Shown piece by piece: positions 19,549 to 42,262 of a DNA stretch of 42,262 nucleotides (position 1 is the first letter of the stretch; each line of letters begins with the position of its first letter). A program made the position numbers and the translations under genes. The notes beneath the pieces were generated by a model. The model made no database searches, was not told the origin of the DNA, and worked only from the letters and a program-made list of their open reading frames with translations. The stretch is from a virus. Lineage: Duplodnaviria; Caudoviricetes. Location: positions 1-42,262 of IMG/VR virus record IMGVR_UViG_3300035002_000029. The stretch is one strand, 5' to 3'.

Positions 19549-20586
19549 TTAGCCTACCCGAAACTGGATACCGCTGCGGCCGGTGCCGTCCGCCATCATC
19601 TCCCTTGCGAGAGTAAAATCGGATTTCTGGCAGATCACAAACTCACGCGCCTGACTTACCTGGAGCGAGTTGTGAAAATCCATGTTCTCGGACGTGGGCC
19701 GCGAGGGCAACCCTGCACGCCAAGCATCCAGCAGATCATCGAGCGGTCGCGCAACCGACGTTATTTCCTCGATAAAAGCTTTCATCTGGGCAGCCGATAT
19801 TTTCCCGTCCATTACGGCTTGGAGAGCAGCGGCTTGGGTCTTGCGGTCTTGCCCCGCGCGGGCCTCTGCGAAACCTCGCATCAACGACGGACACCAAGCG
19901 GCGAGCATCAAATCGGCCGCTAATGGCATGTATATTTCTATCCCTTTGACCCCTAGACCAATGTTCCCTCGAAAAGGTGGCGCGTCACTACTGTTGTGAA
20001 GCGTTACTGGATGATCTCCGAGATAGAAACTTCGACCGTGCGGCGCGCCTATCAGGACAAAGTCCTTCTCAGCGATTACCTTCGTTATGCTTCCGAGTTG
20101 TCTGCCGATAAAACGGATATGCTGCAGCTTTAGCCGATCCGGTGTCAGCTCCTCGTATCCTTTGACATCAGACAACGAATGCCCCCGCCTCCTGAGTGTG
20201 GCATCAAGCTGGACATCCATGCTCGCGAAATGATCGCGAAGTTGCCTCGTGCGCATAAACTGGAATGCCACCAGACACGCCAGGTTGGCGCGCTGCTCGT
20301 GCGATCCATCAAGCCGTCGATCCTGCAGGATTTGGGTATAGGTTGGAAGAACTGCGTCTTCGATCTGGCCGATGAACGGCTCGAAGCTGGCAATCCACTC
20401 ATCATCAATCAGGAACTCGTGGAAGCGATTCTCCGCCATTATGTTCGATATGCTGGTCGAAAAGCCCCGGCCAGTGCTCTTCTGAAATACCGAGACCTGC
20501 TCCTTCTTTGGATTGGACAGGAAGTTTCGCAGTATAAATTTAGGAACGTAGTGTTCGGTTTCCGGCTGCCCTTCACTATTGCTCAA
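19549..20586 (-). CDS. DUF4238-like protein (moron)
   Basis: HYVPKFILRNF N-terminus, QFMRT, F..GDHPV and IYMPL motifs; lower GC than flanking genes. Confidence 0.8.
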   Translation of the reverse strand: MSNSEGQPETEHYVPKFILRNFLSNPKKEQVSVFQKSTGRGFSTSISNIMAENRFHEFLIDDEWIASFEPFIGQIEDAVLPTYTQILQDRRLDGSHEQRANLACLVAFQFMRTRQLRDHFASMDVQLDATLRRRGHSLSDVKGYEELTPDRLKLQHIRFIGRQLGSITKVIAEKDFVLIGAPHGRSFYLGDHPVTLHNSSDAPPFRGNIGLGVKGIEIYMPLAADLMLAAWCPSLMRGFAEARAGQDRKTQAAALQAVMDGKISAAQMKAFIEEITSVARPLDDLLDAWRAGLPSRPTSENMDFHNSLQVSQAREFVICQKSDFTLAREMMADGTGRSGIQFRVG

Positions 20587-20888
20587 AGGATTTTCACCTC
20601 ACTTCCCGGCTCGCTGAACGATATCGCCAAGTCCGCAATAGTGACATACCATATGGCCGCGAGTGCGCAAAACTCACCGTCCGTGGGCAAGCCCCCGCGA
20701 GACAATTGATACAGGCGTTCAGAGGCAATTCCCGTCCGCTTCGTTATCGTGGCAAAGGGCGTACCCTGCTGTGCAACCCAAGCGTTGAACCACCCCGATC
20801 CGCGCCGGATCATCTGCCAGACGGGGTGATTAGCATCATAAGGGCGAACTGCCTTGACGATCGGACGCTCACCCTTTCGGCGGCTCAC
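20583..20888 (-). CDS. Small XRE-like HTH protein
   Basis: ITKRTGIASERLYQLSRGG.PT..E..ALA; GTGA coupling to the upstream gene. Confidence 0.6.
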   Translation of the reverse strand: MSRRKGERPIVKAVRPYDANHPVWQMIRRGSGWFNAWVAQQGTPFATITKRTGIASERLYQLSRGGLPTDGEFCALAAIWYVTIADLAISFSEPGSEVKIL

Positions 20889-21145
20889 TGCGCGAACTTG
20901 TGGAAGTCGGCTACATCGACGACGCGCAGAGTAACCGTGCGAGGCACCCGGCTCTCGCTCACGCGGATCTCTTTGGCAAACTGCACAGGAGAAAAGGGCG
21001 GGGCTTGGTCGCATCCATCTTCGGCCTCCGGCGCGATGAAGCGCGGCGGCGTGCCGCCGCCATGTCGGCGCACCTCAGCCGTAAGCTCGCGCGGACTTCG
21101 GACGAACAAGTCCGGTTGCGCGAGGCAGGAATGGTTATGAGACAT
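20885..21145 (-). CDS. Hypothetical protein, first gene of the LexA-box operon
   Basis: TAGGAG RBS; stop codon coupled to the next start. Confidence 0.55.
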   Translation of the reverse strand: MSHNHSCLAQPDLFVRSPRELTAEVRRHGGGTPPRFIAPEAEDGCDQAPPFSPVQFAKEIRVSESRVPRTVTLRVVDVADFHKFAQ

Positions 21146-21181
21146 TGCAACGCTCCTAAAACACCGACTCGGGCTCGCAAT

Positions 21182-21196
21182 GTTCCACCTTTGTTC
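21182..21196. promoter_or_regulatory. Alphaproteobacterial LexA (SOS) box
   Basis: GTTC-CACCTTT-GTTC. Confidence 0.75.
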
Positions 21197-21197
21197 T

Positions 21198-21938
21198 CTA
21201 TTGTCCAGAAGGCCCGGTTAAACGGGGAGGGGGCGTATAGTTTTCGATATTGGGCCGCGGGGTCAGAGGTACCGCGGCAATCTGCCATTTCTGGAAGGCG
21301 GCAGTTTCCAGTCGGCGAAACGCGTTTAGCGCCCAGTCGTGCGTCGAGACCGCACTTGCCAATTTGTCGTGCCGCTTCGCCTCGATACCGGGTCTAGCTA
21401 ACGCGGTGGCCTCGTCTTCGCGTCGGTATAGCTCGGTTATTCGCGCGTTCATGGCGTAGGCCCGGCTCCGGATTTTGACGAAGTCCTTGAGAAGCGCGAT
21501 GGGAATTTGGCCTGTATCGACCGACCGCATCGCTTCAATTATCTCGGTCGTTCTCAAGGCCCGCAGGCCAAATTCCTCTGTCGAATTACCAAGCGCCACG
21601 TTCAGGCGGTCGCCGACTGTTTCGAGGCTTTCATGGGCCATGCTGTAGGCAGCCTCGGCCGCCGCCTTCTCAGCCGCGAGCGCCGCCTGCAATGCAGCGG
21701 TATCAGCTTCCCTCTTCGCGTGGACTGCCCGGCTGTGCTGCCAAAGAGCAACCCACACGGCCAGACAGATAGATATCGTTGCCCCGATGGCTTGCACCCA
21801 TCCGGGGATGTCATCCTTATTGTCCGCAATAAGATAGGCCGATCCGATCGCGACCAGCACGACAGCTGCTGTCGTCACCAGTCCTACGCCGATCCAGTAC
21901 CGATTTGTCCACTCGTCCATCCGTAATATTTTGCGCAT
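21198..21938 (-). CDS. Membrane-anchored moron protein
   Basis: Two N-terminal TM helices (WVQAIGATISI) plus a helical soluble domain; GGAGGGG RBS. Confidence 0.75.
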   Translation of the reverse strand: MRKILRMDEWTNRYWIGVGLVTTAAVVLVAIGSAYLIADNKDDIPGWVQAIGATISICLAVWVALWQHSRAVHAKREADTAALQAALAAEKAAAEAAYSMAHESLETVGDRLNVALGNSTEEFGLRALRTTEIIEAMRSVDTGQIPIALLKDFVKIRSRAYAMNARITELYRREDEATALARPGIEAKRHDKLASAVSTHDWALNAFRRLETAAFQKWQIAAVPLTPRPNIENYTPPPRLTGPSGQ

Positions 21939-22066
21939 ATCCCCTCCAAGCCGCTAGAAATGCCCGCACAGAAGCCCTTGGGCAAGCCGCCCACGCCTAT
22001 CGGCAAGAAAAAACGGGTTCACCCCCCACTTTGCGCTGCGCGGCCCCCTGTGGGCAAAAAATCCGC

Positions 22067-22255
22067 CTATGAAATATCGCCGCCCGATCGCAGTTCGTGC
22101 AGCCGGGCGGCGATCGCCTGCCACATGGCCACGCCCGCCGCGTCGCCGGCCAGCGCAAGCGCGCCGATCCGCTCGGCGACGAACACCGGAGCGCGATCCC
22201 CATGCTGGCGTTCCACGGCCACGGCGCACGCCCAGACATGCTGCTCGGGCGTCAT
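22067..22255 (-). CDS. DUF6961-like small protein
   Basis: MTPEQHVWACAVAVERQHG.RAP.FVAERIGALALAGD..GVA.W pattern. Confidence 0.7.
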   Translation of the reverse strand: MTPEQHVWACAVAVERQHGDRAPVFVAERIGALALAGDAAGVAMWQAIAARLHELRSGGDIS

Positions 22256-22403
22256 AGCCACGACGCGACCCGCTGCCACAGGCCGAACAACGTCATCCCT
22301 ACAGAGACGGCGAGCAGGATCCAGAACTCGACTTGCGCCAAAACGGAACGGGCACCGCGTGCCCAACGTAGACAGCCGATCCGCAGCGCCGTAAAAATGC
22401 GCG

Positions 22404-22778
22404 ATGTTCTATCGCTCTCTATGGCCCGTCCTCGCCCTGACTTGCCTGTCGGCCTGCTCGAACAGCGAGCCGCTCGACAGCGGCACCGAAGCCGAGGTGA
22501 AAGCCTACTTCGCGAACGACAGGACGTCGAGCCATCTGAGGGTCGCCTCGTCCTGGCGGGCCGACGCGATCGCGACCTCGACCGTATGCGGCAAGATGGC
22601 GCCCGACGCCGATGGCGCCGAGCCGCGTTTCGTTTACGACCCGCAAGGCAAATACGGGCAGGTATCGCTGCCGTCCGGCACCATCGGTGAGAACGACGCG
22701 ACCGACACCTTGATAGCCAAGAACCGCGAAATCTTCGACGATTTGTGGCGCGAGCACTGCGAGGCTTTCGCCCCGTAG
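22404..22778 (+). CDS. Moron lipoprotein
   Basis: MFYRSLWPVLALTCLSAC lipobox; VCG and W...C Cys pair. Confidence 0.75.
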   Translation: MFYRSLWPVLALTCLSACSNSEPLDSGTEAEVKAYFANDRTSSHLRVASSWRADAIATSTVCGKMAPDADGAEPRFVYDPQGKYGQVSLPSGTIGENDATDTLIAKNREIFDDLWREHCEAFAP

Positions 22779-22805
22779 ACTTGGCGGTCCCGATCGGCGC
22801 CTGAA

Positions 22806-23555
22806 CTAGGCGACAGAGCGAACCGGTTGCGCCGGATCAGGGCCTGGCAACCCAGTGACAAGCTCGGCGAGCTTCGCGGCTACGACCGTCATGGAGTCCT
22901 CCGCAGTGTCCAAACCGGTCCGAGAGCCGAGCAATGGACTGACATCCCGCAGAGCTTCGTAAGTGGTTTCATGCACAATCGGGATAAGGCGGTCCCGCGC
23001 GAGAAGCGCCGAGAGCTCCTTGTCCGCGATCCCCTCATTCGGAAGCCGGCGAAGCAGGGCCGGTGTGACCAATACAATTCCCACTCGGGAATTCGCCAGA
23101 CCCTTGTCGATCGTGCGGAGCAGGGGAACACCAAGTCCCACATCCTTCTCGCTAAACCAAACTTTGACACCAGCCGCTTCGAGGAGATCGTGCAACTGCT
23201 TAGCGGCACCCTGCCGGTCATCCCATGCATGGCATAGAAATACGTCCCGGCGATCGGGTTGCACCGGCAAGTGCTCGATAGTTTCGCGTACCGGAGTGAG
23301 CGCCAACACTTGAGCTGAGGTGTAGACGAGTGACGAACCTGCACGCTGCCAGCGCGGCCTTGCGCCACCGCTCGACCCGCTGCGGCCACCCCCTGAAGAA
23401 CCGTAAGAGGGGGAAGAATAAGATGGCGAAGAATAAGAGGGCGACGAGTATGATCCGTAACCGCGGTAGCCACCGTAGCGCCCCCCGCACGCAGGACATT
23501 CCGCCGCAGCGGCCGAAGAGCGATGACCCCTTACAGGTGCAGTGCATCTAGCCAT
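22806..23555 (-). CDS. TIR-domain protein with N-terminal Cys/His cluster and Gly/Ser/Tyr linker
   Basis: DVFLCHAWDD, GVKVWFSE, IDKGLANSRVGIVLVTP, KEL (putative catalytic Glu) and LIPIVH motifs. Confidence 0.9.
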   Translation of the reverse strand: MARCTAPVRGHRSSAAAAECPACGGRYGGYRGYGSYSSPSYSSPSYSSPSYGSSGGGRSGSSGGARPRWQRAGSSLVYTSAQVLALTPVRETIEHLPVQPDRRDVFLCHAWDDRQGAAKQLHDLLEAAGVKVWFSEKDVGLGVPLLRTIDKGLANSRVGIVLVTPALLRRLPNEGIADKELSALLARDRLIPIVHETTYEALRDVSPLLGSRTGLDTAEDSMTVVAAKLAELVTGLPGPDPAQPVRSVA

Positions 23556-36210: not shown

Positions 36211-37871
36211 CCTCCGAGGTGCCGTCGATCCTGCTGTCCTATCAGCAGGAAACGATCGAGCTTTCCGAACAGCACGACTTCCTTGTGGTCGAAAAGTCGC
36301 GGCGTATCGGCCTGTCCTATGGCGTTTCGCCTCTGGCAGTCCTCGCCGCGTCGCTCGCGAACGGCGCTCAGAACGTCTATTACGTCGGCTACAACCTCGA
36401 CATGGCGCGCGAGTTCATCGGCTATTGCGCCGACTTCGCCACCGCCTTTGAAGAGGTCCGCGTCTCGCTCCCGAGCGAGGAGGTCGATCTCGTCGTTCGC
36501 CGCGAGGATGGCAGCTATCTCAACGCCGAGGGCAATGTCCTCGTCGACGCTCGCGATGGCGACTATCACGATGACGTCGTTGTCCGCGAGGCGCAGGGTG
36601 GCTTCCTGATCAAGGGCGAGGCCGGGAAGTCGGTCAAGGCGTTCCGGGTCGACTTTGCGTCAGGCAAGGCCGTGGTGGCGCTGCCCTCCAGCCCGCGATC
36701 GGTGCGCGGTAAGCAGGGCATCTTCATTATCGATGAAGCGGCATTTCACGATAATCTGGAGGAGCTGATCAAGGCGATCCTCGCCGCCCTCATGTGGGGC
36801 GGACGCGTGATCGTCATCTCGACCCATGACGGCACCGACAATTTCTTCAACACGCTGGTCGAAGAGATCCGCACGGGTAAACGCGGCGGACATGTCCAGC
36901 GCATCACCCTCAAAGATGCGCTCGCCGCGGGGCTCTATCAGCGCATCTGCCTTGTCCAGGGCAAGGAATGGTCGCCGGAGGCTGAAGCCAAATGGGAGGC
37001 TGATCTCCGCAGGAAATATGGCAGCGCCGCCGACGAGGAGCTGGACGTCATCCCCGCCCGAGGAACGGGCACCTATCTGGCACGCGCAACCATCCTCGAA
37101 GCGATGTCGAAGGAGCTGCCCGTCGTTCGCCTCGCGTGTCCCGATGGGTTCGAGCGCTGGGGGGAAAAGCCGCGCCGCTCATGGCTGACGGACTTTCTCG
37201 AAGACGAGGTCAAGCCTTGGCTCGATGCCTTCAATCCTACGCGCCGGACCTTCATGGGGCAGGACTTCGCGCGCAGCGGTGACGTCTCGCCGATCATGTT
37301 CGGCCAGCATGACGAGATGATGCGGCTGCACGCCCGCCTGACGCTGGAGATGCGCAATGTGCCCTTCTCCGATCAGGAGTTCGTCGTCGAGTGGCTGATC
37401 GATCGCGTCCCGCATTTCGCAGGCGGCAAGATGGACGGGCGCGGCAATGGCTCGGCGCTCGCTGAGAAAATGCAGCAGCTCTACGGCTTCGACGTGATCG
37501 AGGCCGTGATGGCCACCGACAAGACCTACCTCCAATATATGCCCCTGCTCAAATCGGGGATCGAGGACCGCACATTTATCATCCCCTACGACGAAGGCGT
37601 CCTCGACGACTTCCGCATGATCAAGCAGGTGCGCGGCATCCCCAAGATCCCAGAGCGTCCCGCCACCGCGCGAGAGGACGGCAAGATCGTGAAGCGCCAC
37701 GGCGACACCGCGATCGCCGGCATGCACCTCGTCGCTGCCGCCAACGAGGATCCGGGCGACATCGAGTTCGAAGGGACCGGCGCACGCGACAGCACATCCG
37801 GCGAGTTCGAGATCACCGACCGCGGCTTCGGCTCCGTCACTCGCCATTCATCGGAAGGATTTGAGCTATGA
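36198..37871 (+). CDS. Large terminase (Mu gp28-like)
   Basis: LLSYQ, EKSRRIGLS, RGKQG..IIDEAAFH, ISTHDG, GQDFARSGD and HGDTAIA motifs. Confidence 0.95.
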   Translation: MPDVTSEVPSILLSYQQETIELSEQHDFLVVEKSRRIGLSYGVSPLAVLAASLANGAQNVYYVGYNLDMAREFIGYCADFATAFEEVRVSLPSEEVDLVVRREDGSYLNAEGNVLVDARDGDYHDDVVVREAQGGFLIKGEAGKSVKAFRVDFASGKAVVALPSSPRSVRGKQGIFIIDEAAFHDNLEELIKAILAALMWGGRVIVISTHDGTDNFFNTLVEEIRTGKRGGHVQRITLKDALAAGLYQRICLVQGKEWSPEAEAKWEADLRRKYGSAADEELDVIPARGTGTYLARATILEAMSKELPVVRLACPDGFERWGEKPRRSWLTDFLEDEVKPWLDAFNPTRRTFMGQDFARSGDVSPIMFGQHDEMMRLHARLTLEMRNVPFSDQEFVVEWLIDRVPHFAGGKMDGRGNGSALAEKMQQLYGFDVIEAVMATDKTYLQYMPLLKSGIEDRTFIIPYDEGVLDDFRMIKQVRGIPKIPERPATAREDGKIVKRHGDTAIAGMHLVAAANEDPGDIEFEGTGARDSTSGEFEITDRGFGSVTRHSSEGFEL

Positions 37872-39919
37872 TCGCTCCCACCAGCAAGCGCAGCCGCGCT
37901 GCTGCTCCTCGCGCAACCAAGGCCGAACTCTTCGCCGAGATCGCATCGACGGCGGATGGCAAGGATATCACGCGCCCTTTCCTCACCGGCCTGCAGGAGC
38001 CCCGCGATCCCCGGCTGCGCGGCGCGGTCGATTGGGGTGTCTATGATCGCATCCTGCAGGACGATCAGGTCTACTCCACGCTCCAGCAGCGCTTCCTCGC
38101 CGTCATTTCGCGCAACTGGAGCGTGGTTCCCGGAGATGACAAGGATCCGCGATCGGTCGAGGCCTCCGATCGTTTCGCCGACACCGTCGCGCGGATTGGC
38201 TGGGATCGCATCACGCAAAAGATGCTCTATGCGATCCCCAACGGCATCGCGGTGGCAGAGGTTATGTGGGCCGAGCGCGATGGCCTGATCGATATCGACA
38301 GGATCAAGGTTCGCCACGCGCGCCGTTTCCGTTTCGATGCTGAGAACCGGCTCCGCCTCCTGACTTCGGTCGGTGGCCTCGGCACGATCATGCCCGACCG
38401 CAAGTTCTGGGTCTTCACAATGGGCGGCTCGGACGATGACGAGCGATACGGCCGCGGCCTCGCCGAATGGCTCTATTGGCCCACGCTCTTCAAGCGCAAC
38501 GGCATCCGCTTTTGGAATATCTTCCTCGACAAGTTCGGCGCCCCGACCGCTGTGGGCAAATATCGCCCCGGCACGCCCAAGAGCGAGCAGAAGAAGCTGT
38601 TGGCAGCGCTGCAGGCCATCACCACCGACAGCGGCATCATCCTTCCCGAGGGCATGGCAGTGACGCTGCTGGAAGCCGTGCGCTCGGGCGGCGGTGATCA
38701 CGACAAGATGGTCCGTTACATGGACGAGGCGATCGCCAAGATCGTGCTGTCCCAGACGATGACCACGCAGGACGGCGCGAGCCTCAGTCAGGCGCAGGTC
38801 CACCAAGGCGTCAAGATGGAGGTCGTTTCGTCCGACGCCGACCTGCAGTGCGACAGCTTCAATGAAACCGTCGCCCGTTGGTGGACCGACCTCAACTACG
38901 GCCATGACGTGGCCAGCCCGCGCGTCACGCGCGAGGTCGAGGAGGAAGAGGACACCCAGGCGCAGGCGGAGACCGATACCGAGCTTGAAAAGCAGGGCTG
39001 GGTTCGCACGCCCGAGAGCTTCCGGGACGTCTATGGCGATGGTTTCGTCCGCAAGGAAAAGGCGGCGGAGCCGGACGAAGGCGCCGATGGCGACCGCTCG
39101 GACGTCGCCGATCCCGACAAGGGCGACGAAGGCGCGAACGACAACGATCTGCAGGATCCGAACGTCAACGATCGCACCGCCAGTTTCGCGGCCGACGATC
39201 CGCGCCCGCTCTATGTCTGCCGTCCGCTCGTCAATGCCGACGAACTGATTGCCTGGGCTCGCGAGCAGGGCTTCAAATCGGTCATCCCCGCCGAGGAGAT
39301 GCACGTCACTGTCACCTATTCCAAGCGCCCGGTGAACTGGCTCAAGATGGGCGGCTTTTGGGGATGGGGGCCGGATACTTCCGACCATCTCGTCCCGATG
39401 GGCGGCCCGCGGATCGTCGAGGCGATCGGCGATCAGGGCGCCGTCGCGCTGCACTTCGCCTCTGGTCACCTTTACCAGCGCAATCGCGAGATGCGCGATG
39501 CCGGTGCGAGCTGGGATTACGCGGATTATATGCCGCACGTCACGCTCACCTACGACGCTGGCGACGTCGACCTGTCGAAGGTCACGCCGTATCGCGGCGA
39601 GTTGCGCTTCGGCCCCGAGATGTTCGAGCCGATCCAAACCGATTGGGAAAAGGACGTCGCCGAGGCCAGCTTCGCCGAGGGCGACATCCCCGACGCCCAG
39701 GAGGACAAGCTCGTCGACGATCTGATCGCTCGCGATGGCTACCGCGCCACGCGCGCCCTCACCGATCCGATGCTCGATGCCATCCGCAGCGCCAAAACCG
39801 CCGCCGAGCTGATAGCCGCACTCAACGCTGGCGTCGGCGACGAGGCGCCGATCGCCGCCGACCTCGAACGTGCCGGCCTCGCGGCAGCCCTAGACGCTGG
39901 AGAAGGCGACGATGGCTGA
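37868..39919 (+). CDS. Portal protein (Mu gp29/DUF935) with an inserted 2H phosphoesterase (Acb1-like) domain
   Basis: YGRGL..LYWP..FKR....FW..FLDKFG.P and IAKIVLSQTMTT motifs; HVT motifs at 39302 and 39536. Confidence 0.9.
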   Translation: MIAPTSKRSRAAAPRATKAELFAEIASTADGKDITRPFLTGLQEPRDPRLRGAVDWGVYDRILQDDQVYSTLQQRFLAVISRNWSVVPGDDKDPRSVEASDRFADTVARIGWDRITQKMLYAIPNGIAVAEVMWAERDGLIDIDRIKVRHARRFRFDAENRLRLLTSVGGLGTIMPDRKFWVFTMGGSDDDERYGRGLAEWLYWPTLFKRNGIRFWNIFLDKFGAPTAVGKYRPGTPKSEQKKLLAALQAITTDSGIILPEGMAVTLLEAVRSGGGDHDKMVRYMDEAIAKIVLSQTMTTQDGASLSQAQVHQGVKMEVVSSDADLQCDSFNETVARWWTDLNYGHDVASPRVTREVEEEEDTQAQAETDTELEKQGWVRTPESFRDVYGDGFVRKEKAAEPDEGADGDRSDVADPDKGDEGANDNDLQDPNVNDRTASFAADDPRPLYVCRPLVNADELIAWAREQGFKSVIPAEEMHVTVTYSKRPVNWLKMGGFWGWGPDTSDHLVPMGGPRIVEAIGDQGAVALHFASGHLYQRNREMRDAGASWDYADYMPHVTLTYDAGDVDLSKVTPYRGELRFGPEMFEPIQTDWEKDVAEASFAEGDIPDAQEDKLVDDLIARDGYRATRALTDPMLDAIRSAKTAAELIAALNAGVGDEAPIAADLERAGLAAALDAGEGDDG

Positions 39920-41120
39920 GCGGCCGCCTCTCCGCGACACAATCTACCTCGATTCGGGCGACATCATTGCCGCTTGGGCCGAGCGGTCGCAATATCGCCT
40001 CTCCGTCCATTGGACCGACACATATCAGGAGGAGCACGCCTCCTCATTCACGGTCGCGAAGATCGTCAAGCTCGATCTCCTGACGTCGATCAAAGTCTCG
40101 CTCGACGACGTCATCCGCAACGGCGGAACCTTTGAGCAATGGCAGGCGAGCATCATGCCCGAGCTGAAAAAACACGGCTGGTGGGGCGTAGTCCAGAATG
40201 AAGAACTGACGGGTACGCCCGATCCCGTTGTGGTGGACGAACGCCGCCTGCGCAACATCTACCGCACCAACGTCCGGATGAGCATCGCCGCTGGGCGCTG
40301 GCGCAAGTATCAGCGCGAAAAGGCGATCTTTCCCTACATCCGGTACATCTCGGACCATTATCGCAAGCACCCGCGGCTCGACCACAAGAGCTGGCATGGC
40401 ATCATCCTGCCGGTCGATGATCCGGCGTGGCAGTGGATGTTCCCGCCGAACGGTTGGGGCTGCAATTGCCGACCGGAGCAGGTTAGCCAAGCGCGGATGG
40501 ATCGCATGGGCTGGAAGGTCAGCGAGGCGCCCAACCCACCGCGTCGCGACTTTGTGACAGCGGCAGGCGAGATCGTATCGGTGCCTGATGGCGTGGCGCC
40601 CGGCTTCGCTTATAATCCGGGCACCGCTCACCTCCGCGTCGTCGCCGATCGCGCGACGGCCTCGCTTGCCAATGCGGTGGCCGCCGGTCTCGAAGATATC
40701 GCCCGCCAGACCCTGCGTGAGCTGGTTGCCGATCCGTCGTTCGATCAATTCCTGTCGATGCCCGATCCGCAGTTCCCGGTCATGATCCTCGACGACGTGA
40801 TGGCCGGCGCGATCGGCGCCAAGCAGCGCGTCGCCGTGCTGTCCGAGGCCACCCTCGAAAAGCAGGTCCGCAAGCGCGGCGATCTGCCAGTCGAAGTCTA
40901 TCGCAAGCTGCCCAGCCTCGGCGATCGCCCCGACATCGTCGCGCGCGACGGCGACAATGTTCTGATCATCACCCGCGAGGCCGATGGCGCGTGGGTCGTT
41001 GCGATCGTGAAACGCACCGCCAGCGGCGAAGGGCTGTTCGTCGTGAGCGTGCGTCAGCAAAACGAGGCATCGCTTCCGCGGCTCCTCCGCGACGCGGAGA
41101 TCATTCTTGATCGGCGGTAG
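39912..41120 (+). CDS. MuF/gp30 head morphogenesis protein with C-terminal PBECR2-like nuclease-fold extension
   Basis: RLRNIYRTN, H.SWHG.ILPVDDP.W...FPPNGWGCNC and GFAYNPG; then LSEATLEKQ...VAIVKRT.SGEGLFVVSVR. Confidence 0.85.
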   Translation: MAERPPLRDTIYLDSGDIIAAWAERSQYRLSVHWTDTYQEEHASSFTVAKIVKLDLLTSIKVSLDDVIRNGGTFEQWQASIMPELKKHGWWGVVQNEELTGTPDPVVVDERRLRNIYRTNVRMSIAAGRWRKYQREKAIFPYIRYISDHYRKHPRLDHKSWHGIILPVDDPAWQWMFPPNGWGCNCRPEQVSQARMDRMGWKVSEAPNPPRRDFVTAAGEIVSVPDGVAPGFAYNPGTAHLRVVADRATASLANAVAAGLEDIARQTLRELVADPSFDQFLSMPDPQFPVMILDDVMAGAIGAKQRVAVLSEATLEKQVRKRGDLPVEVYRKLPSLGDRPDIVARDGDNVLIITREADGAWVVAIVKRTASGEGLFVVSVRQQNEASLPRLLRDAEIILDRR

Positions 41121-41126
41121 GGAACG

Positions 41127-41224
41127 TGGACGCGCGGCGAGGACTTGCATCCCTCACATGGCGCTCCGTCAGCCCATCGGCTGGCGTGCTACGGCCGCAA
41201 GGTTCACCGTGTCACGCGCGTCCT
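41127..41224 (-). ncRNA. Candidate ~96-nt cloverleaf RNA with complementary loops
   Basis: 9-bp closing stem 41128-36/41215-23, three internal hairpins, CUUGC/GCAAG loop complementarity, dedicated promoter. Confidence 0.7.
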
Positions 41225-41230
41225 GTGCTT

Positions 41231-41259
41231 CATATAGCACCGCGCCGGCTAATTCTCAA
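41231..41259 (-). promoter_or_regulatory. Sigma70-type promoter for the ncRNA
   Basis: TTGAGA (41259-54), 17 bp, TATATG (41236-31) with extended TG; predicted +1 at about 41224. Confidence 0.7.
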
Positions 41260-41391
41260 TTCCCGCCGTCAGAGGCGGGGGTAGGGGCGTTGGAGCGCCC
41301 CAGAACCGATGGACAGCACCCATCATGGCCCAACCGATCCCGCTCTAGAAAACAGGTAGCTGGATCATCCCGCCCGTCCGACCGGACAGGC

Positions 41392-41406
41392 GAACGACTA
41401 GGGAAC
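41392..41406. promoter_or_regulatory. LexA (SOS) box upstream of the methylase
   Basis: GAAC-GACTAGG-GAAC. Confidence 0.6.
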
Positions 41407-41407
41407 A

Positions 41408-42262
41408 ATGATAACTGTGTCGAGTCCGTCTCACCCCGCGGCCGAGGGGCTGATGCCCGTCGCGCCCACCCGTCCCGTCGCCGGTTATATCGGCGGCAAG
41501 CGCAACCTTGCAAAGCGCGTCATCGAGCGCATCAACACAATACCCCATTCCGCCTATGCCGAGCCTTTCGTGGGCATGGGTGGCATCTTCCTCCGCCGCA
41601 ATCTCCGGCCGAAGGCGGAGGCGATCAACGACTGGTCGACCGACGTCGCGACCTTCTTCCGGATCCTGCAGCGGCACTATGTGCCGTTCATGGATATGCT
41701 CCGCTTCGAGCTGACGACGCGCACCCGCTTCGAGCAGCTCCTGCGCACCGATCCGACGACGCTCACCGACTTGGAGCGGGCAGCGCGCTTCCTCTACCTC
41801 CAGCGGGCGGCGTTCGGCGGCAAGGTATCGGGCCGCGTCTTTGGCGTCTCGCCGACGACGCCCGCGCGCTTCGACATCACCAAGCTCGGGCCGATGCTGG
41901 AGGCCGCCCATGAACGCCTCGCGCCTGTCACGATCGAGCGCTTGCCTTGGGCGGACTTCATCACCCGCTACGACCGGCCCGGCATGCTCTTCTATCTCGA
42001 TCCACCCTACTACGGATCCGAGAAAGACTATGTCGGCGACGATCGCCAGCCGCTTTTCGAGCGAGCGGAGTTCGAGGCGATGGCGGAGCAGCTCGGAGGC
42101 CTGCAGGGTCGCTTCCTGCTCAGCATCAACGATCATCCGGACGTCCGCGCGATGTTCGCCGCCTTTGATTTTGAGGCCGTCGAAACCACCTATCAGGTCG
42201 GCGGCATGGACAAGGCCAAGCGCGTCGGCGAACTCATCATTTCAGGAGGCGCTGGAGCATAG
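41408..42262 (+). CDS. DNA adenine methylase (Dam/D12 class); true start may be the later ATG of MPVAPT
   Basis: YIGGK, YAEPFVGMGG, EAIND and FYLDPPY motifs; occupies the terminal position held by mom in Mu. Confidence 0.93.
   Translation: MITVSSPSHPAAEGLMPVAPTRPVAGYIGGKRNLAKRVIERINTIPHSAYAEPFVGMGGIFLRRNLRPKAEAINDWSTDVATFFRILQRHYVPFMDMLRFELTTRTRFEQLLRTDPTTLTDLERAARFLYLQRAAFGGKVSGRVFGVSPTTPARFDITKLGPMLEAAHERLAPVTIERLPWADFITRYDRPGMLFYLDPPYYGSEKDYVGDDRQPLFERAEFEAMAEQLGGLQGRFLLSINDHPDVRAMFAAFDFEAVETTYQVGGMDKAKRVGELIISGGAGA

Follow-up and report, generated by a model that had tools for sequence, protein, structure and literature searches.

Genes for MuF toxins usually have a small immunity ORF behind them (available sections of PMC5576092), and the locus described here raises the question of what occupies that place when no such ORF is present. 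The window, by which we mean the whole stretch of 42,262 nucleotides analysed, is a Mu-like provirus record encoding transposase, Gam, GemA, Mor, terminase, portal, MuF and a D12-class methylase; its nearest MuF relatives belong to sphingomonads. No small immunity ORF lies directly downstream of its MuF gene. Instead, the 287 nt that separate the MuF stop (41120) from the plus-strand methylase frame at the right end of the window (beginning at 41408) contain an RNA element on the opposite strand, the 3' end of which is set apart from the MuF stop codon (41118-41120) by 7 nt (41121-41127) in a convergent, tail-to-tail arrangement. An earlier note, made from the letters alone, had proposed a promoter-driven, tRNA-like RNA at this place as the partner of a virion-borne nuclease; the letters and positions on which it relied are all present at their minus-strand places (Table 1).

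Table 1. Features of the MuF gene and the facing RNA gene in the window.
Feature	Coordinates	Strand	Evidence
MuF minor head protein, 402 aa	39912..41120	+	Pfam PF04233 E 2e-13; phrog_220
BECR-fold (PBECR-type) C-terminal domain, residues 270-402	40719..41117	+	model pLDDT 85; structural matches
Class-1 tRNA-shaped noncoding RNA gene, four-way junction; predicted +1 at 41224 (A)	41128..41223	-	covariation; homologues
Closing stem P1, 5' strand, acceptor-stem-like, pairs with 41136-41128	41215..41223	-	two-sided changes in 8/9 pairs
Arm P2, 4 bp, D-arm position; CUUGC in loop at 41201-41197	41191..41210	-	covariation alignment
Arm P3, anticodon-arm position; variable hairpin 41183-41170	41161..41189	-	covariation alignment
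Arm P4, 6 bp, T-arm position, abuts P1; GCAAG in loop at 41148-41144	41137..41157	-	covariation alignment
Promoter-like site TTGAGA-17-TATATG; TTGAGA 41259-41254, TATATG 41236-41231	41231..41259	-	positional peaks across 155 copies

Several other features of the record were noted. The portal protein (37868-39919) has a C-terminal Acb1 domain (2H phosphoesterase, anti-CBASS; Pfam E 2e-38), and portal-2H fusions are recorded in the part of PMC5512222 available to us. Accessory genes at 19549-23555, between the repressor and the head protease, encode a TIR_2 protein (22806-23555) and a DUF4238 protein (19549-20586), which are possible defence cargo. Another folded element, at 41254-41400, lies between the RNA promoter and the methylase (plus-strand z -3.25, 0/200 shuffles) and is common to several relatives, including one (L174) that has lost the tRNA-like RNA; on the minus strand it gives a weak, sub-threshold Rfam match to the KDPG-aldolase motif (E 0.029, 25.5 against 54.6 bits), and it is possibly a translational control leader of the methylase.

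Considered on its own, the window sequence gives a weak signal. Folding of the RNA in isolation is not significant (z -1.17 and -1.76, with -2.05 for the plus strand), and one minimum-energy fold does not contain P2; the base of P3 is probably lengthened by C-G pairs and, across an internal loop, by a GC/GC pair. The CUUGC of the P2 loop is complementary to the GCAAG of the P4 loop. A strict sigma-70 scan lists no promoter in the window; the -10 element of the promoter-like site does not have the final T that the scan demands, and alphaproteobacterial promoters often do without this base. The only terminator-like hairpin found by a terminator scan (41085-41099, plus strand) falls inside MuF. 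A single open frame of 52 aa covers the RNA, and family lengths are spread over all three frames (56/58/41); a protein-coding role for the region was rejected.

ARAGORN finds 0 tRNA genes in the window, and an Rfam scan returns nothing over the RNA at E values up to 10, as the earlier note had anticipated. Its statement that the element is not a tRNA also agrees with the data, which show no match to the tRNA model and no 7-nt anticodon loop on a 5-bp stem. Two smaller claims apply to this copy and fail for the family: the letters of a 3' CCA are present in the window, its two C residues being inside the stem, while a CCA after the stem is found in no more than 14 of 155 distinct copies; and TTC is missing here, while it opens the last loop in 51/155.

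The homologues were collected in stages. A similar element was found beside four of five MuF relatives. A first scan with a pattern taken from the first arm gave 87 viral loci, divided into 35 family members and 52 chance hits; a looser pattern gave 120 loci from half of the collection, with 110 distinct copies; and a profile search gave 243 hits, of which 17 were unparsable and the remainder represent 155 distinct copies. The covariance model (R1) scores the window RNA at 87 bits, the window being one of its training sequences.

In a 30-sequence alignment that includes the loop-loop helix, 91.5% of the cells pair and 20 of the 34 pairs change on both sides, whereas none of 500 shuffles reaches any of these measures and slid partners pair at 36-44%. 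Chance is thus excluded as the source of the fold, because the homologues covary. RNAalifold, unaided, recovered P1, P2, P4 and part of P3. P4 is paired in 98.9% of cells with two-sided changes in 4/6 pairs, and the distal helix of P3 in 83%, again with 4/6; the basal helix of P3 is paired in 72% and its changes are one-sided G-U only. P2 is 100% paired, with an A-U to G-U change in 6/30 copies, a conservation that is partly built in because P2 belonged to the search pattern. The loop-loop helix is 91.6% paired, with 4/6 pairs two-sided. Across the wider set, 146 of 155 distinct copies have a perfect 5-bp loop-loop kiss, in 19 sequence types, and the pairing score is passed by 148/155 against a mean of 63 with shuffled partners, in a control that ignores relatedness. 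The covariation of stems and loops proposed in the earlier note as a check is therefore borne out.

The strand and the start of the RNA can also be read from the family. In the core columns of the 155 copies G-U outnumbers A-C by 21 to 7, which supports an RNA on the minus strand. Upstream of the P1 junction TTG peaks at 45 nt (49 copies) and TA at 22 nt (36 copies; n=155); these peaks are 23 nt apart, which fits a promoter with a 17-nt spacer. The class-1 unit is single, 78-134 nt long, with a closing stem mostly of 7-12 bp. Its arms follow the order of those of tRNA, with the last arm abutting the closing stem and the first and last loops in contact, while the middle arm is free in length and loop across the family. 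At the Rfam 15 gathering score there was no match over the RNAs in the window, at 20 loci of several classes or at six orphan or stand-alone loci, and the only Rfam hits at the tested loci were ordinary tRNAs nearby; BLAST of the window RNA against annotated phages, and of the RNA of a relative (L115) against E. coli genomes and phages, gave nothing relevant. The window RNA is a member of a real and widespread RNA family that is absent from Rfam 15.

The family is tied to one type of protein domain. In the first scan 31 of the 35 RNA copies face a BECR-type gene (29 MuF, one edge-cut BECR end and one stand-alone gene), and none of the 52 chance pattern hits has MuF. In the second, 86 of the 110 distinct copies face the domain found in the window, 13 have flanks that are too short and 11 do not face it. 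The reverse approach started from 325 loci fetched by protein, 298 of which were usable, leaving 209 after 90% clustering. Class-1 RNA lies behind 56 of the 93 MuF genes that encode this domain, none of the 76 that encode other tails and two of the 40 short genes, as found with protein and RNA profiles that were trained on linked loci and share some contigs with this set, in which L263 encodes the exact window protein. A model-free detector of the promoter plus the top half of the RNA, with cut-offs fixed after inspection of the data, finds 68/93, 8/76 and 0/40, respectively. The eight positives are BECR-like tails of other clades, and both short MuF genes with class-1 RNA are frameshifted BECR genes, so that no intact short MuF has the RNA behind it; linkage to nuclease-bearing MuF and absence after short MuF, which the earlier note had set as checks, are both observed. 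In all linked loci listed the RNA is downstream and convergent, and in most its end is within a few bases of the MuF stop or overlaps it. Pairs without a capsid anchor also occur, as stand-alone BECR genes with the RNA in L049 and four genome loci. In L386 and L362 there are only weak RNA model hits, and L227, in which an intact-looking internal domain is followed by an ADP-ribosyltransferase domain, shows no RNA.

Consideration of the MuF C-terminal domain gives insight into what the RNA may act upon. Its model shows a helix plus a 4-5-strand BECR fold, and the best structural matches are CdiA-CT of NC101 (Z 6.0), BrnT (5.8) and colicin D (5.1), all of them weak and below 8; Foldseek with the model finds no match at E 0.001. 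The closest folds are mostly tRNases (PMC5737660; preprint 10.64898/2026.08.28.747851, section 10; each available in part), and the same preprint describes characterised colicin-like BECR proteins as targeting mostly tRNAs. Neighbours in the Atlas are MuF_C, PBECR2 and PBECR3 at 0.83-0.84, which we treat as a lead only. A PDB sequence search with the domain profile found no relevant match, nor did BLAST of the domain against annotated phages. The label PBECR2, given to the domain in the earlier note, proved wrong: Pfam PBECR2 (PF18810) matches neither the window protein nor any of 26 aligned domains, whereas other MuF tails match it at 80-120 bits; PBECR3 gives weak hits in 3/26 relatives, and the window domain has no PBECR hit. 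Relatives mostly show K-Q-x-x-x-H, Y and S/T; the window has K317, R322, Y330 and S379, with Arg322 in the position of the predicted catalytic His. Five PBECR families have His plus Ser/Thr, and a sixth has Arg (Iyer et al., PMC5512222, in part). Domains of this Arg form keep the RNA in all ten loci.

Comparison of the window with other loci shows that the RNA and the domain move together. L002 matches the window at 39401-40790 and 41185-42257 (83-89%) with no similarity between; the N-terminal halves of the two MuF proteins are 85% identical and the domains 27%, and the RNA of L002 is of a different subtype. In L344 and L266 the N-termini are distant (52-55%), the domains similar (61-69%) and the RNA is of the window's subtype. 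The RNA and domain are exchanged as one cassette, and RNA subtype follows the domain.

The two are also lost together. Where the domain has degenerated, as judged by eye from loss of the motif and labelled after inspection of the data, the RNA model finds a hit in none of nine loci with filters off, and six of the nine, those included in a quick tree, fall at separate places in it. In one such comparison similarity between L174 and the window ends at 41032 and returns only at 41258, meaning that the RNA and most of its promoter are gone. In the quick tree the L001/L174 branch lies beside the Arg group, the members of which keep the RNA; this order suggests that the Arg form either remains harmful or has retained binding.

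Copies of the RNA that are unlinked to the domain are common. Of 15 viral records with unlinked RNA, eight of them at least 90% complete, none has this domain (control 5/5), as judged with a profile that misses other BECR clades such as the PBECR2-type MuF of L484. The RNA is present in 13 of 151 genomes of a sphingomonad family sample, centre genome counted, and in 7 of 151 of a rhizobial order sample. The 22 genome hits, at one or two copies per genome, comprise three that face MuF-BECR, four with stand-alone BECR genes and 15 orphans; nine of ten tested genomes do not have the domain, with the proviso that these genomes may be incomplete. These orphans, on alphaproteobacterial chromosomes, lie mostly beside unrelated genes, including housekeeping genes (hemH, glnD), restriction-modification genes and recombinase genes. 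Three orphans are on the same strand upstream of rpsL, rpsD and rpsB (L539, L546 and L549, respectively), two chromosomal orphans are beside methylase-Mrr genes (L542, L544), and a provirus orphan of class 1 (L036:1948-2120) is directly behind a tRNA gene with a CAU anticodon.

Taken together, these observations lead us to propose, with a probability of roughly 0.6, that the conserved tRNA-shaped RNA is the antidote of the predicted RNase, which it would bind as an uncleavable tRNA mimic and so block a virion-borne tRNase. We see intact domains with the RNA, dead domains that lack it, the RNA by itself and, rarely, an intact domain that lacks the RNA; this is the pattern of a toxin and its antidote. 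A mimic that competes for binding is the simplest way to read a tRNA-shaped RNA beside a tRNase-like fold. The RNA would be transcribed from its own promoter, independently of the late operon, and so would be present in the lysogen and early in infection. P1 and P4 would stack like the acceptor and T arms of tRNA, with the 5-bp kiss in place of the D/T-loop elbow. The domain would be a tRNA-cutting toxin, or a tRNA-binding one in the Arg form, packaged in the head and injected, and the RNA would shield the producing cell as well as cells in which the prophage is already present. Orphan copies may then provide phages and hosts with immunity to the nucleases of other phages. The earlier note had left open whether the RNA neutralises the nuclease, acts as a decoy or is co-packaged with it; cassette exchange, joint loss and the stand-alone pairs favour the antitoxin over co-packaging. 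The PBECR2 label and the CCA end are not supported, and the note had noticed neither Arg322 nor the many orphans.

Several observations sit less easily with an antidote. The Arg form keeps its RNA, which a pure anti-cleavage role fits only if that form is harmful. Orphans are common, and if they are of value as immunity one would expect the RNA to persist in phages with dead domains, yet these have lost it. The domain of L227 looks intact and no RNA is seen there. Neighbouring DNA travels together regardless of function. The Arg form and the frequency of orphans leave room for the RNA as a decoy or effector in its own right. In such a case the RNA would be a weapon, a tRNA decoy or mimic directed at host anti-phage tRNA nucleases or at translation, and the MuF domain would bind, trim or carry it in the virion. 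The ten Arg-for-His domains with RNA are consistent with this, as are the phage orphans, which are structurally intact in records without this domain (0/15), and the inactive MuF-C of phage Mu has been proposed to bind RNA (PMC5512222, in part). We consider it unlikely, as an autonomous weapon should outlast decay of the domain and the RNA is absent in 9/9 such cases; moreover, stand-alone BECR genes without a capsid anchor have the RNA, host chromosomes keep it, and each nuclease clade has a separate RNA class.

The layout itself would suit silencing in cis, resembling a type I system, in which expression of the MuF toxin is reduced either by convergent transcription or through base pairing at the 3' end of the late mRNA, and the fold does no more than stabilize the RNA. 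The genes are tail-to-tail with no obvious terminator, and the RNA end is at or near the stop in most loci. This explanation is quite improbable when set against a tertiary loop-loop pairing preserved through 19 sequence types, copies that are 261 to 1443 nt distant with other DNA intervening, and orphans that have no target to silence. We give equally little weight to the view that the RNA is unconnected with the domain, being a small RNA of general purpose or a small mobile element carried along downstream of MuF. The chromosomal copies at unrelated sites (rpsL, rpsD, rpsB, hemH, glnD, restriction-modification) in the 13/151 and 7/151 genomes speak for it; however, the RNA is found behind none of the 76 other tails and no intact short MuF, it has been lost repeatedly alongside decay of the domain, it is limited to one or two copies per genome, and other PBECR clades have other RNA classes at the same place. 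The complementary loops and closed ends of phi29 pRNA, together with the position of our RNA in the head module after portal and MuF, bring to mind a packaging RNA that forms a ring at the portal by intermolecular loop pairing, which is very improbable for an RNA that is absent from many Mu-like phages with short MuF, occurs on chromosomes and with stand-alone nucleases, and tracks the tail domain and not the head genes.

The antidote reading may extend beyond class 1, although the other RNA classes were read by eye. Members of the clade without class 1 mostly have a shorter tRNA-shaped RNA at the same place (class 2, 23 copies); loop-loop complementarity in these 23 is not above that of shuffled partners, 119 of 2000 being as high, which leaves class 1 as the only class with an established kiss. 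PBECR2 genes are often accompanied by an RNA of two hairpins, the loops of which are complementary in the listed helices, as read without a control: in five convergent examples (L108, L116, L185, L213, L226), which are not in Rfam, the complementary loops are of 6-8 bp and a U-run often follows, while three intact-looking PBECR2 genes (L105, L190, L207) have no adjacent RNA that we could see. A convergent RNA class with a conserved 12-nt core was noted behind PBECR3-like tails (L113, L137, L180, L182, L210, L216, L225, L277, L307). MuF_C-like genes have yet another class, some members of which have a canonical T-loop. Convergent RNAs with a canonical T-arm also occur downstream of MuF in L102, L107 and L124, those of L102 and L124 having no Rfam match at the gathering score, and they are possible intermediates between tRNA genes and the mimics. 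The same layout is present in two Helicobacter prophage records and not in phage B23.

Three RNA genes are stacked behind the PBECR2-type MuF of L484 (L484:1590-2001), one of the two-hairpin type, one of class 1 and one related; L272 and L539/L551 likewise have stacked or paired RNA genes, and at all of these loci each RNA gene has an upstream region to itself. We tentatively suggest, from these sequence comparisons, a superfamily of tRNA-derived RNAs in temperate phages, one class per PBECR clade, that would serve as the immunity genes of virion-delivered RNase toxins, with rival phages stacking foreign copies and bacteria capturing the RNA alone on their chromosomes as immunity to injected nucleases.

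If correct, the antidote reading would explain how the head proteins of proteobacterial phages can bear predicted RNase domains when no immunity ORF is present. RNA antitoxins that bind proteins would then reach beyond repeat-type operons to polymorphic toxins, probably by way of tRNA mimicry. The reading also offers a direct way to test the PBECR and Ct_MAD domains, which are still uncharacterised, and the natural orthogonal pairs, which differ in kiss sequence and RNA class, make specificity testable. The chromosomal orphans suggest an overlooked layer of RNA-based anti-phage or anti-toxin immunity. In our literature search, which was largely of open-access papers, an RNA partner of MuF/PBECR was nowhere described. 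The accessible parts of PMC5576092 and PMC5512222 do not mention one for PBECR or Ct_MAD tails, and 'noncoding' has 0 occurrences in that of the latter; the core motifs are absent from the searchable supplements of a set of 10,006 candidate viral RNAs (PMC10690425), where the family may be listed unnamed.

The nearest functional parallel would be with type III toxin-antitoxin systems (ToxIN, CptIN, TenpIN; compared here from the available part of PMC5086642). As in these systems, a predicted endoribonuclease lies beside a pseudoknotted noncoding RNA, the type of RNA follows the toxin clade, and the phage copies of the RNA without a toxin recall the pseudo-ToxI mimicry of phage TE. The differences are considerable. 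Type III antitoxins are tandem repeats processed by the toxin, whereas the class-1 RNA has no tandem repeats, and its occasional pairs are separate genes; type III loci are arranged as RNA, terminator and toxin under one promoter, whereas here the RNA gene lies beyond the toxin gene on the other strand, behind a promoter-like site of its own; the H-type monomer is replaced by a four-way tRNA-like fold with a loop-loop kiss; and the predicted toxin has a BECR fold and is fused to a virion protein.

The system resembles MuF polymorphic toxins (PMC5576092, PMC5512222; available in part) in its MuF N-terminus, exchangeable C-terminal effector, cassette exchange and small partner behind the toxin gene; unlike their toxin-immunity pairs (PMC5576092), the partner in the immunity position is an opposite-strand RNA gene and not a small ORF. 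With the colicin-like BECR tRNases (CdiA-CT of E. coli NC101, colicin D, colicin E5) it shares the fold and, in most relatives, the Lys/His...Ser pattern, although the similarity is weak (Z 4-6, about 10% identity) and the window has Arg for His; those enzymes are neutralized by immunity proteins (PMC5737660; 10.64898/2026.08.28.747851; in part). Finally, the RNA is like tRNA (RF00005) in its cloverleaf order, 4-bp first arm, last arm stacked on the closing stem and contact between first and last loops, but unlike tRNA it has no anticodon loop and no conserved CCA, and a Watson-Crick kiss stands in place of the G18/G19 elbow. The bacterial Y RNAs, which are also tRNA-like, have a comparable shape.
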